A stretch of DNA of 64,000 nt from Escherichia coli (GCF_001677475.2 NZ_CP015229.1); one strand, 5' to 3'; numbered from the stretch's first letter, positions 38,932-46,314 are shown. Notes: generated from the sequence alone by a model not told the origin. Numbers and translations: made by a program.

Positions 38932-39457
38932 TTAATAATAAGTATCGGGTTTGTTACGATAGAATTTTTCTATATCCTCAAGAATATGCTTTGCCTTATT
39001 GCCTGTGACTTTCTGAGATTCAATTATATCATCGTTAAATTCTAAAGTTAATGAGAACTCATTTTTTCCGCTTTGTGTAAGTTTAACATTATATTGCGTC
39101 GTAATTTTTAAATGAATATGTCCTGTAATGAGAATAATCACTTTTAGTTACCTCAGCAAAACAGCAAAGTGTGCAAATATACATACAATCTTTCTTACCC
39201 CTGATTTTGTTAACTAAATCAATAAATGCGTGAAAAAGTTTATTTGCAATAGAACTTGATGCTTCTTCTCCAGGTCTACAAAAATCTTTTGCAATTTTTA
39301 ACTGTGTTTCTATATATAAAAAGAGATCTTTGGCATAAGAGAAATCTTTATTATTTAGTGCATCTAGCTCAACAGGTAAAGATGTCGTTTTGTTGCTATT
39401 CACATATGATATATTCATATCATCATCTCCATCGGGAGTAATAAAATTAATCACCAT
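38932..39457 (-). pseudogene. AT-rich hypothetical gene apparently split by a frameshift (yjbS region)
   Basis: Two minus-strand ORFs in different frames overlap at 39089-39141: 39089-39457 (122 aa) and 38932-39141 (69 aa, MIILITGHIHLKITTQYN...). Together they look like one ancestral gene of about 190 aa. Confidence 0.45.
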
Positions 39458-41454: not shown

Positions 41455-44277
41455 TTACAGCATCGGCTTGAGGAAGCGTGCCGTATGCGAAGCTTCGCAC
41501 TCTGCGACGGTTTCTGGCGTACCGGAGACGAGGATCTCGCCGCCCCCACTGCCGCCTTCCGGTCCCAGGTCGACAATCCAGTCAGCGGTTTTGATCACGT
41601 CGAGATTGTGCTCAATCACCACAATGGTATTGCCCTGATCGCGCAGTTTATGCAGTACGTCGAGCAGTTGCTGAATATCGGCGAAGTGCAGACCGGTGGT
41701 CGGCTCGTCGAGAATATACAGCGTCTGCCCAGTGCCGCGTTTTGACAGCTCACGCGCCAGCTTCACGCGCTGGGCTTCACCACCAGAAAGCGTGGTTGCG
41801 GACTGCCCGAGGCGAATGTACGTCAGGCCAACGTCCATCAACGTTTGCAGCTTACGCGCCAGAGCTGGCACCGCATCAAAGAACTCACGCGCCTCTTCGA
41901 TGGTCATATCCAGCACTTCGTGGATGGTTTTGCCTTTGTACTTAATCTCCAGCGTTTCACGGTTATAGCGTTTGCCTTTGCACTGGTCGCACGGTACGTA
42001 GATATCCGGCAGGAAGTGCATCTCCACTTTGATCACACCGTCGCCCTGACAGGCTTCGCAGCGTCCGCCACGGACGTTAAAGCTGAAACGTCCTGGCGTA
42101 TAACCGCGCGCACGGGATTCCGGTACGCCCGCAAACAGTTCGCGCACAGGCGTAAACACGCCGGTATAGGTCGCCGGGTTAGAACGCGGAGTACGACCAA
42201 TTGGGCTTTGGTCGATATCGATCACTTTATCGAAATGCTCCAGCCCCTGAATATCGCGATACGGTGCCGGTTCGGCAATGGTCGCACCATTCAACTGGCG
42301 TTGGGCAATCGGGAACAGTGTGTCGTTAATCAGCGTCGATTTACCGGAACCTGAAACCCCTGTGATGCAGGTAAACAGACCGACTGGTAGCGTCAGCGTC
42401 ACGTCTTTCAGGTTATTACCGCGTGCGCCTGTCAGCTTCAGCACTTTTTCCGGATTCGCCGGAACGCGTTTCTTCGGCACCTCAATCTTGCGTTTACCGC
42501 TCATGTACTGCCCGGTCAACGACTCAGGCACCGCCATAATCGCTTCCAGTGGACCTTCCGCGACCACTTCACCGCCGTGAACACCCGCACCAGGACCGAT
42601 ATCGATCACATGGTCAGCGGCGCGAATCGCGTCTTCGTCGTGCTCCACCACAATCACGGTATTACCGAGATCGCGCAGATGGATAAGCGTACCCAACAGG
42701 CGCTCGTTATCGCGCTGGTGCAGGCCGATAGACGGCTCGTCCAGTACATACATTACGCCAACCAAGCCCGCACCAATCTGGCTCGCCAGACGAATACGCT
42801 GGGCTTCACCGCCAGAAAGTGTTTCTGCCGAGCGGGAAAGTGTCAGGTAATTCAGGCCGACGTTAACGAGGAATTTCAGGCGATCACCAATCTCTTTAAG
42901 GATTTTTTCCGCAATCTTCGCCCGCTGACCTGCGAGTTTGAGATTGTTGAAGAATTCCATCGCATGACCGATGCTCATGTCGGAGATAGCAGGTAGCGGC
43001 GTATTCTCGACATAAACGTGGCGCGCTTCCCGACGCAGACGCGTCCCTTCGCAGCTGGCGCACGGACGATTGCTGATAAACTTGGCTAATTCTTCACGTA
43101 CCGCACTGGATTCCGTCTCTTTATAACGGCGCTCCATATTGTGCAGCACGCCTTCGAACGGATGACGACGAATGGAGGTATCGCCACGATCGTTCATGTA
43201 TTTGAATTCAATATTTTCTTTGCCAGAACCGTACAACACCACTTTATGCACATTCGCGCTCAGGCTGCCCCACGGCGCTTCGACGTCGAACTTATAGTGA
43301 TCTGCCAGCGATTTCAGCATCTGGAAGTAATAGAAGTTGCGGCGATCCCAGCCTCGGATCGCACCACCTGCCAGCGACAGTTCCGGATTCTGGATCACGC
43401 GGTCAGGATCGAAATATTGCTGTACGCCAAGGCCGTCACAGGTCGGGCAGGCACCCGCCGGGTTGTTAAACGAAAACAGGCGTGGTTCCAGTTCACGCAT
43501 ACTGTAGCCGCAAATTGGGCAGGCGAAGTTGGCGGAAAATAGCAGCTCTTCCGCTTTTGGATCGTCCATATCGGCAACTACCGCGGTACCACCGGAAAGC
43601 TCCAGCGCGGTTTCAAACGACTCTGCCAGACGTTGGGTGAGATCGTCACGCACCTTGAAGCGATCAACCACCACTTCAATGGTATGTTTCTTTTGCAGCT
43701 CCAGTTTCGGCGGATCGGAAAGATCGCAGACTTCGCCATCAATACGAGCACGGATGTAACCCTGGCTTGCCAGGTTCTCCAGCGTTTTGGTGTGTTCGCC
43801 TTTGCGCTCTTTAATGATTGGCGCGAGCAGCATCAGACGCTTGCCTTCCGGCTGGGACAACACGTTATCCACCATCTGACTGACGGTTTGCGCCGCCAGC
43901 GGTACATCGTGGTCCGGGCAGCGCGGCTCACCAACGCGAGCGTACAGCAGACGCAAATAGTCGTGGATTTCGGTGATTGTCCCCACCGTAGAGCGCGGGT
44001 TATGAGACGTCGATTTCTGCTCAATTGAGATGGCAGGAGAAAGCCCCTCAATATGGTCGACGTCCGGCTTTTCCATCAGTGACAGAAACTGCCGCGCGTA
44101 GGCGGAAAGGGATTCAACGTAACGGCGCTGCCCTTCGGCATATAAGGTGTCGAAAGCGAGCGAGGATTTGCCAGAACCCGAAAGCCCAGTCACGACAATG
44201 AGCTTGTCGCGGGGGATAACGAGGTTGATGTTTTTGAGATTATGGGTGCGGGCGCCCCGAACTTCGATCTTATCCAT
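41455..44277 (-). CDS. uvrA: Excinuclease ABC subunit A
   Basis: 940 aa, [50 protein letters not shown], with two ABC ATPase modules and zinc fingers. Confidence 0.98.
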
Positions 44278-44531: not shown

Positions 44532-45068
44532 ATGGCCAGCAGAGGCGTAAACAAGGTTATTCTCGTTGGTAATCTGGGTCAGGACCCGGAAGTACGCTAC
44601 ATGCCAAATGGTGGCGCAGTTGCCAACATTACGCTGGCTACTTCCGAATCCTGGCGTGATAAAGCGACCGGCGAGATGAAAGAGCAGACTGAATGGCACC
44701 GCGTTGTGCTGTTCGGCAAACTGGCAGAAGTAGCCAGCGAATATCTGCGTAAAGGTTCTCAGGTTTATATCGAAGGTCAGCTGCGTACCCGCAAATGGAC
44801 CGATCAATCCGGTCAGGATCGCTACACCACAGAAGTCGTGGTGAACGTTGGCGGCACCATGCAGATGCTGGGTGGTCGTCAGGGTGGTGGCGCTCCTGCA
44901 GGTGGCAATATCGGTGGTGGTCAGCCGCAGGGCGGTTGGGGTCAGCCTCAGCAGCCGCAGGGCGGCAATCAGTTCAGCGGCGGCGCGCAGTCTCGCCCGC
45001 AGCAGTCCGCTCCGGCAGCACCGTCTAACGAGCCGCCGATGGACTTTGATGACGATATTCCCTTCTAA
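44532..45068 (+). CDS. ssb: Single-stranded DNA-binding protein
   Basis: 178 aa, [44 protein letters not shown]..., Gly/Gln-rich linker and acidic tip DFDDDIPF. Confidence 0.98.
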
Positions 45069-45118
45069 GAATCTGCGTCTTTGGTGTTGAGATCTCTCAA
45101 CGCGAAACATATGCGTAC

Positions 45119-45145
45119 AGGAGCCGAAAATGAATTTCGGCTCCT
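45119..45145. terminator. Hairpin between convergent ssb and the 193-aa orphan ORF
   Basis: aggagccgaaaatgaatttcggctcct; no strong U-tract. Confidence 0.5.
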
Positions 45146-45179
45146 GAAATAGTCAAGGATTGTTCCTCTCATTAATTTA

Positions 45180-45761
45180 TTATTCCGGGTTATACAAAAT
45201 ATTCAGTTTTGCACCTTGTACCAGTTTATATTCTTTATACTCTCTTTCTACTTCATGTCGCTCGGCTTTGTTTAACTGTGTGGTCAATTTTCTAAGGTTT
45301 TCAACAACAATAGCCATATTTAATTCTTCAGGAAGCGATCTTGTTTCACTCCATTTTTTTCCGTGTAAAAACCCGCCATGGTCTATATTAAAATGGGTTT
45401 CCTCTACACTGAATATTATTTTTGTGCCTAGCCCATCTTGTCTGATGGATACAGTTTGGCGTAAATAATCATTTTGAGAAATAAAATTTATATCTTTGGG
45501 GGTTCCATCAATATTGGACTCGAAAGAGGTTACTTCTGCCATGAGTTTAGATACTCGCTGAGAATTAAACTCGACTTTCCCATGCGTGATGAAATGAATA
45601 AGATCCTTCAAGAGATTTGTAAAACCATCAATCTTTTTATAAATAACTGCGTTTAATTTTGATGAATTTGCAAATTTTTTATCTGCTTTAACCAGGTCAT
45701 TCTGAAATTGCTCCAGTGTTATTTTATTTTGAGTTCCTATATTATTATTATATATCGTCAT
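45180..45761 (-). CDS. Hypothetical 193-aa protein, AT-rich orphan ORF convergent with ssb
   Basis: Strong RBS (aaaggagaagatcATG); no stops over 582 bp in AT-rich DNA; soluble, charged, no recognisable motif (MTIYNNNIGTQNKITLEQFQNDLVKADKKF...). Confidence 0.6.
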   Translation of the reverse strand: MTIYNNNIGTQNKITLEQFQNDLVKADKKFANSSKLNAVIYKKIDGFTNLLKDLIHFITHGKVEFNSQRVSKLMAEVTSFESNIDGTPKDINFISQNDYLRQTVSIRQDGLGTKIIFSVEETHFNIDHGGFLHGKKWSETRSLPEELNMAIVVENLRKLTTQLNKAERHEVEREYKEYKLVQGAKLNILYNPE

Positions 45762-46032
45762 GATCTTCTCCTTTATAATTTATTGAGAACATTACGTTGG
45801 ACGTTAGGTAGTACAATTTATTTGTTTTCATCCTAGCCTTAATCAAATTTTGAACTATCAAAAATTGCTCATTTGTATAAAATTCAGCAAGGAGGTGGCG
45901 AAGATAGTGAAGATGCTAAGCGTACAACACCTTCAAGCGTTGATTAAAAGAAAGTGCGATATGTGATGATAGGGCGGCCGAGGAAGCTATTCATCGACCG
46001 CTTGTGAAGGGATAAAAGTCAAGAAAGTGAAA

Positions 46033-46314
46033 TCAGGTCAAAATCATTGGCCATTGTGGCGGTGTCTGATTCATCTCTTCAATCATCACCGACTCGATGT
46101 TGTGCCAGATGGCGGTGATATCCGCCATTGTGATGCCAAGCAACCCCATTGCGAACCAGCAGGCGGAAACCACGCCCAGACCGCTGCTGATCACTGCAAG
46201 CCCGACATAATCAGACCGACGAAAACGGATGTTGAGCGTGCTGGCCAGAAACATCATTACGGCACTAAGAAGTTGCCAGCGAAGAAGAACCACGCCAGTG
46301 GTGAGGGTAGCCAT
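46033..46314 (-). CDS. yjcB: Small inner-membrane protein YjcB
   Basis: 93 aa from MATLTTGVVLLRWQLLSAVMMFLASTLNIRF, two predicted TM segments; RBS gagg. The track ORF is extended upstream. Confidence 0.75.
   Translation of the reverse strand: MATLTTGVVLLRWQLLSAVMMFLASTLNIRFRRSDYVGLAVISSGLGVVSACWFAMGLLGITMADITAIWHNIESVMIEEMNQTPPQWPMILT

Follow-up and report, generated by a model that had tools for sequence, protein, structure and literature searches.

A rare single-gene cassette with an orphan open reading frame at the ssb-yjcB integration hotspot of Escherichia coli

Introduction

The junction between the core genes ssb and yjcB of Escherichia coli is a described site of DNA integration. The present analysis concerns one form of this junction, found in a stretch of 64,000 nucleotides of an E. 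coli chromosome (GCF_001677475.2, NZ_CP015229.1; hereafter the window), where a short AT-rich cassette with a single open reading frame (ORF) of 193 codons fills the space between the two genes. An earlier note on the window had put this ORF forward as a foreign-looking insert and a candidate defence or stress gene. It was found that the ORF is a genuine protein-coding gene, an accessory gene restricted to E. coli. Very probably, it is a selected but dispensable orphan gene in a non-mobile cassette at the hotspot.

In the survey of Hochhauser, Millman and Sorek (2023), the yjcB-ssb junction is integration hotspot #39, which was occupied in 38 of 1,292 genomes and has no tRNA gene (PMC10121019, S1 Table). 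The occupants are typically GInt or Tn6571-family elements (PMC10121019). A 'yjcB-ssb defense island' with Detocs and a dGTPase was reported elsewhere (PMC11728103). Because hotspots with three genes or fewer were scored as 'empty' in the survey (PMC10121019), a one-gene cassette such as the present one falls outside it. One large occupant is seen in the genome of Y5 (L008 1-11738), which has two adjacent integrase genes, DRT3 (drt3a/b) and Hachiman (HamA and a helicase) at the same junction. This island is inserted at the 3' end of ssb, and the K-12 spacer is kept on the yjcB side.

The defence islands of hotspot #39 resemble the cassette in three respects: the junction, the presence that varies from strain to strain, and the foreign base composition. 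However, the islands are 10-20 kb long, contain integrases and leave the K-12 spacer in place on the yjcB side when they insert at the 3' end of ssb, whereas the cassette is 964 bp long, contains one gene and replaces the spacer wholly. The islands also carry known defence systems, whereas the cassette matches no known defence model and has neither an integrase nor repeats. A further relative by position is found in Salmonella. Salmonella pathogenicity island 4 (SPI-4), which lies on the ssb side of the same syntenic junction, is horizontally acquired DNA as well, but it is an adhesin and type I secretion island (siiA-F) of ~24 kb without sequence relation to the ORF. The SPI-4 block was listed as ssb1, a JUMPstart RNA, siiA-F and a 'family of unknown function' gene (PMC10048834).

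The orphan gene and its cassette

The genes in this part of the window follow the order uvrA (minus), ssb (plus), the ORF (minus), yjcB (minus), pdeC and soxS, on an E. coli-like chromosome.

45180..45761, minus strand: orphan ORF of 193 codons plus stop, with its ATG at 45759-45761; the product is a soluble protein of 22.3 kDa with an isoelectric point of 7.9
45768..45773, minus strand: Shine-Dalgarno sequence AAGGAG, 6 nt 5' of the ATG of the ORF
45069..46032, no strand: AT-rich cassette of 964 bp (GC content 0.35), which is the whole ssb-yjcB spacer and stands in place of the unrelated 98-bp spacer of K-12
44532..45068, plus strand: ssb, the core gene at one edge of the hotspot, convergent with the ORF
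46033..46314, minus strand: yjcB, the core gene at the other edge, upstream of the ORF and on the same strand
41455-44277, minus strand: uvrA, the flanking gene beyond ssb

The earlier note had described a frame of 193 residues on the minus strand with a strong ribosome-binding site, convergent to ssb and far richer in AT than the flanking core genes, and all of this was confirmed. The GC content of the ORF is 0.328 (0.284 at third codon positions). For comparison, uvrA has 0.554, ssb 0.579, yjcB 0.532 and the window as a whole 0.503. Alignment with K-12 revealed that homology breaks exactly at the ssb stop codon and restarts exactly at the yjcB stop codon; the 98-bp spacer of K-12 holds a hairpin that resembles a bidirectional terminator. 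Within the cassette, the 193-aa ORF is the only one kept across alleles, and no integrase, tRNA or flanking direct repeat was detected. The protein itself lacks a hydrophobic segment (the best 19-residue Kyte-Doolittle mean is 0.38) and gave no match in Pfam or NCBIfam, immunity families included, in line with the expectation of a soluble protein without a recognisable domain.

It could be argued that the ORF is not a gene but a chance frame in an AT-rich spacer, or that the real feature is an RNA or lies on the other strand. The lack of homologues beyond E. coli and of a promoter match would fit this idea, as would an antisense frame of 102 codons (45160-45468) that overlaps the ORF. It is, however, largely refuted and most improbable. 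The ORF segment contains a stop-free run of 199 codons, which was not equalled in any of 2,000 shuffles (mean 67, maximum 167). The frame, the start region and the Shine-Dalgarno sequence are conserved across diverged alleles, whereas the antisense frame would break at the 1-bp and 2-bp indels of other alleles, and Rfam offered nothing better than E = 0.56.

Distribution of the cassette

A probe of 398 bp of K-12 sequence spanning the junction was searched in 5,426 complete E. coli genomes, the set used throughout. The probe was contiguous, as in the compact K-12-type junction, in 4,970 of them. The matching places numbered 5,865 against 5,426 records, and this excess suggests that the junction is split by an insertion in about 440 genomes. 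The cassette was present in only 22 genomes (0.4%), the same 22 being returned by megablast and by sensitive blastn, which bears out the description of a foreign-looking accessory insert. Every carrier has a single chromosomal copy between ssb and yjcB, and the cassette was never found on a plasmid. The closest match (97.8%) came from GF4-3, an isolate from guinea fowl, while the remaining carriers are ~87-88% identical over the cassette; the exact cassette of the window occurs in none of the complete genomes. Three short assembly contigs with the cassette and two further copies from a 20-mer search of JGI metagenomes are also from E. coli and from the same locus.

The uvrA gene of the window (41455-44277) is at most 98.5% identical to that of any complete RefSeq E. 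coli genome, with isolates from possum and koala as the best matches. Together with the 97.8% ceiling for the cassette, this places the window in an under-sampled E. coli lineage.

Searches outside these genomes gave the same picture. Six clusters containing the protein were found among 5.8 billion proteins by single-sequence and profile search, all from E. coli, and an exhaustive phmmer scan of 1.84 billion representative proteins returned two matches only. The exact protein has already been deposited as 'hypothetical protein [Escherichia coli]', and no mention of the protein accessions was found in the literature searched. Using tblastn, nothing was detected in 72,556 plasmids and 50,697 phage records, and no relative was found in IMG/VR. 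When 100,044 GTDB species representatives were searched with peptide patterns and with a 20-mer of the invariant flank, no relatives appeared apart from two chance archaeal matches. The ORF is thus clearly a taxonomically restricted orphan gene and not a conserved core or housekeeping gene of the Enterobacteriaceae, which would be expected to occur throughout that family with a core-like composition (here, a GC content of 0.33 against 0.50).

The possibility that the cassette is a remnant of a GInt or another island was rejected, as its sequence, flanks included, is found nowhere else in the complete genomes, even in the distant mode of blastn. As an integrase, attachment repeats and target-site repeats are all missing and no second copy of the cassette exists, any spread between strains would have to proceed by homologous recombination through the flanking core genes. 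The cassette, with one copy per genome, does not resemble an insertion sequence (IS) or a miniature inverted-repeat transposable element, and its sole candidate for terminal inverted repeats is an AT-rich sequence of 22 nt with 73% complementarity. This imperfect repeat (45190-45211 / 45859-45880) brackets the hyper-diverged segment 45178-45877 almost exactly, but it is probably a chance product of AT-rich DNA.

Allele classes and localised divergence

About ten alleles were compared, and these fall into three classes. The first comprises the window and GF4-3 (193 aa), the second is the S51 type (158 aa, GTG start) and the third is the N3/L004 type (158 aa from GTG). Where the repeat is expanded in frame, or an ATG further upstream lengthens the protein, the called length in the third class is 173-186 aa. 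The S51 allele has a 1-bp deletion near 45285, by which the protein ends at residue 158 (...NLPHS). The same terminus is common to all other non-window alleles, which suggests that the N3/L004 types share the deletion. The Shine-Dalgarno sequence AAGGAG is kept in the S51 type and is replaced by the weaker AAGGAA in the N3/L004 type. Along the cassette, the variation is distributed as follows.

45627..45761, minus strand: hypervariable N-terminal part, residues 1-45, with 25-41 differences per 100 bp between classes
45288..45626, minus strand: conserved core, residues 46-158, with most residues invariant in all alleles
45183..45287, minus strand: C-terminal tail (residues 159-193), helical, limited to the window-type allele and variable even there
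45774..45877, minus strand: region upstream of the ORF, a 5' untranslated region or putative promoter, moderately variable (10-12 differences per ~100 bp)
45069..45179, no strand: left flank with two hairpins (45087-45102 and 45118-45146), conserved
45878..46032, no strand: right flank, nearly invariant (0-3 differences per 100 bp among alleles with ~16% divergence in the ORF)

Between the window and the other classes, there are 0-6 differences per 100 bp in ssb, yjcB and the adjoining spacers, as compared with 6-41 in the ORF. The divergence peaks over the first ~60 codons (45578-45777) and falls back to 0-3 per 100 bp in the right flank. In absolute terms, the ORF has 107-115 differences over 582 bp, against 4-8 over the 266 bp of the non-coding flanks of the cassette (Fisher p ~1e-12 to 1e-14); the coding region is 5-10 times more diverged than its own flanks. 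It follows that relaxed constraint alone is insufficient as an explanation. The excess may reflect older alleles, maintained by balancing selection or imported by recombination; accelerated change of the ORF; or flanks that are under unusually strong constraint, as terminators might be.

The rates of synonymous (dS) and non-synonymous (dN) change, and their ratio (dN/dS, omega), differ along the gene. For the first 41 aligned codons, dS is 0.13-0.37 and omega is 1.2-1.6 in all five comparisons, none of which differs significantly from 1; between the window allele and the other two classes, the N-terminal part has a dN of 0.43-0.52 and a dS of 0.28-0.37. The core of 117 codons has a dS of 0.14-0.27 (0.23-0.27 for the window allele against the others) and an omega of 0.38-0.52. 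For uvrA, ssb, yjcB and pdeC, dS is 0.03-0.15 and omega is 0.006-0.16; ssb differs between carriers by a dS of 0.05-0.07 and a dN of 0.

The ORF is open across alleles that are ~16% apart in nucleotides, and the 158-aa form is open in both the S51 and the N3/L004 types, which are separated by a dS of ~0.15. Most indels keep the frame; in the N-terminal part, a deletion removes 12 bp and a 15-bp repeat is expanded by 45 bp, both in frame. In the N3/L004 class, the tandemly expanded 15-bp unit encodes (Q)FNSI, and L004 (3926-4447) has three extra copies.

A selected gene or a decaying relic

The gene can be dispensed with; the constraint on it is weak overall, and its ends change fast. Several observations weigh against the reading as a selected accessory gene, and most of these are what the main rival explanation would predict. 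According to this rival, the ORF is a decaying relic, a functionless leftover of the cargo of an ancient insertion, which survives by drift and is being replaced through recombination by the compact K-12-type junction. Over the whole ORF, omega between classes is high (0.6-0.8, with a dS of 0.14-0.37), and the omega of the core is of marginal significance (p = 0.03-0.08 in the two pairs tested). The final 35 residues of the window protein are missing from most alleles, and some alleles combine a GTG start with a weakened Shine-Dalgarno sequence. In L015 (2837-3318) and L023, the frame is shifted at the N-terminal repeat, leaving a product of 105 aa from an internal start, and in GPEC1446 (L012 2125-2822) an IS1A copy in the 5' end of the gene truncates the protein to 147 aa. 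The frequency of 0.4% is low, and no sigma-70-like promoter was found upstream of the ORF by consensus scan. Finally, the low divergence of the flanks could be due to constraint on terminators instead of older ORF alleles.

Other results do not agree with a relic. A neutral frame in DNA of 33% GC would gain stop codons, yet the 158-codon frame is open in 21 of the 22 complete genomes that carry the cassette, in three classes and at a dS of 0.14-0.31. The N-terminal indels would not be expected to come in multiples of three, nor would omega in the core (~0.4-0.5) be expected to lie below that of the N-terminal part (~1.2-1.6). Neutral decay cannot give an ORF several times the divergence of the non-coding DNA that adjoins it. 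The relic is hence a serious but doubtful explanation. Stop-prone DNA has retained an open frame here over substantial divergence, and the core of ~110 aa is moderately constrained; the gene is therefore real.

Possible functions of the protein

The cassette is a variant of the ssb-yjcB spacer, and its rare occurrence at a conflict hotspot amounts to a presence/absence polymorphism. Tentatively and with considerable doubt, the protein may be proposed to act in inter-genomic conflict, as a binding protein without enzymatic activity in which the variable N-terminus would determine specificity. This is suggested by the site, the rarity, the evolutionary pattern and the small, soluble, motif-free protein. 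Such a protein might be a stand-alone phage-defence factor, a factor against mobile elements or an orphan immunity-type protein, with the variable N-terminal helices determining the target and the conserved core serving as a scaffold. Given the AT-rich base composition, silencing of the ORF by H-NS is likely. The full statement, in which the accessory gene and the conflict role are combined, falls somewhat short of an even chance. A bolder version would make the ORF the first member of a new family of conflict proteins that act alone and without enzymatic activity, either in single-gene anti-phage defence or as orphan immunity proteins. Balancing or diversifying selection would maintain its ancient divergent alleles at hotspot #39, with the N-terminal helices as the specificity determinant; the gene would spread by flanking recombination in place of a mobile element, and island-based surveys that pass over inserts of up to three genes would miss it. 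This version is unlikely.

Of the suggestion in the earlier note that the ORF is a defence or stress gene, the part that concerns the place has stood, since the junction is a hotspot with defence islands; nothing ties the protein itself to defence or stress, be it a convincing PADLOC match, defence neighbours, a mobile backbone or a fold. The neighbouring DNA-repair genes, which had been read as a pointer, appear irrelevant as such; what counts is the ssb 3' end as an integration site. Location is, in turn, weak evidence, because the junction also holds SPI-4 and, in 13 of the 5,426 genomes, an 8-kb metabolic island without defence genes. In 2014C-3075 (L009 12363-20378), this island encodes a C4-dicarboxylate transporter, a fumarylacetoacetate hydrolase-family protein, a dihydrodipicolinate synthase (DHDPS)-family protein, a LacI regulator, a major facilitator superfamily (MFS) transporter and a carbohydrate porin.

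The conflict role also has to contend with what was found around the gene and in the searches. The ORF has the location of a hotspot #39 occupant but neither the mobile backbone nor the co-located defence genes: in every carrier examined, the cassette is adjoined by the core genes ssb and yjcB, with no defence genes beside it. No family in PADLOC-DB v2 matched the window protein at E <= 1, and for three other alleles, the sole match was PbeC (E = 0.011, 12 bits, one allele). PHROGs gave nothing better than E = 0.052, and no PDB chain similar to the protein was found by phmmer or by profile. The two AlphaFold (AF2) models of the protein are poor, with a predicted local distance difference test (pLDDT) score of 46-48, so that no fold, whether NTF2-like, cystatin-like or other, could be assigned and the idea of a binding protein is left without structural support. 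Both models predict, at low confidence, the same order in the core, namely two helices followed by an antiparallel sheet of 4-5 strands.

Orphan immunity-type proteins of polymorphic toxin systems include NTF2-like immunity families. The ORF differs from them in that no toxin gene or fragment adjoins it and its protein matches no immunity family in sequence. A toxin-antitoxin or toxin-immunity pair does not fit either, as the ORF stands alone, with no co-oriented small partner in the 271-bp upstream spacer.

Two alternatives assign other functions to the protein. The first is a small protein, functionally linked to yjcB, that binds nucleic acids or acts as a regulator; it might have, for example, a beta-beta-beta-beta-alpha fold like that of PUR, Whirly or PC4, and would be encoded in a yjcB-ORF operon. 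Co-transcription with yjcB is possible, since neither a promoter nor a terminator is evident between the two genes, and it may also apply under the favoured reading of an accessory conflict gene; a regulator of this kind is nevertheless improbable.

The second alternative, a relative of type III secretion effectors or chaperones such as the N-terminal domain of Salmonella PipB2, is very improbable. The similarity to PipB2 (PDB 2LEZ) amounts to 11% identity from a model with a pLDDT of 48; it is absent with the second AF2 model and has no support in sequence. The protein is not similar in sequence to EspX5 or to any PDB chain. An N-terminal composition like that of a secretion signal (S, T, N, I, P and Q fraction 0.56) occurs in the window allele only, as compared with fractions of 0.32 and 0.24 in the others. 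The effector idea was rejected because of the lack of similarity to EspX5 and the unconserved N-terminal composition.

Flanks of the cassette and rejected elements

The left flank is 92.7-96.4% identical across alleles, contains a perfect inverted repeat of 12 bp and has an RNA fold z of -4.1. It is likely the shared terminator region of ssb and the ORF; it was not called in the terminator scan, as it has no U-run. In the right flank, a hairpin without a U-tract is located just downstream of yjcB (45974-46001). No significant RNA structure was detected in the region upstream of the ORF (45774..45877).

Two small elements were considered around a strong AAGGAGG sequence on the plus strand (site 45889-45966), within the nearly invariant right flank. 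One is a frame of 19 codons (45907-45966; MKMLSVQHLQALIKRKCDM, GTG 45907 to TGA), which was rejected as a gene: GTG 45907 and ATG 45913 lie 11 and 17 nt, respectively, beyond the end of AAGGAGG, a poor spacing, and 1-bp deletions in other alleles break the frame. The other is the sequestration of the ribosome-binding site of the ORF by the leader. The minus-strand reading of the AAGGAGG site, CACCUCCUU, is anti-Shine-Dalgarno-like and resembles the 3' end of 16S rRNA on the minus-strand transcript. This was rejected too, for the leader folds (z = -0.7 and -1.4) are not significant and do not pair the element at the AAGGAGG site with the ribosome-binding site.

Other loci in the window

Two more ORFs lie in AT-rich pockets of the window: one of 340 aa (30686-31708, plus strand, GC content ~0.29-0.37) and one of 122 aa (39089-39457, minus strand, GC content ~0.31), the latter flanked by one ORF of 411 aa on its upstream side and one of 317 aa on its downstream side. 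Neither the 340-aa nor the 122-aa ORF had a match in NCBIfam. The window also contains two AT-rich pentapeptide-repeat genes (21068-22648, plus strand, and 53067-54359, minus strand). One belongs to the SopA family (NF007264, 1,145 bits), and the other is at the position annotated in Y5 as espX5, a type III secretion effector pentapeptide repeat protein.

Conclusions

The hotspot was already known, and so was the protein as a 'hypothetical' one. The new points are the limits and the frequency of the cassette, the structure of its alleles and its locally confined hyper-divergence. If the ORF is a relic, the analysis documents the range of occupants of the ssb-yjcB junction and takes the ORF off the lists of candidates. 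In either case, it is one among many uncharacterised accessory orphan genes of E. coli, of mild interest to a specialist and no surprise. A hyper-diverged coding region between near-identical non-coding flanks does provide a compact example of fast evolution confined to one place in E. coli, and one that can be tested. If the conflict function were true, a protein family without detectable relatives would be added, and defence hotspots would also hold tiny cargo without a mobile element, which island-based pipelines discard.
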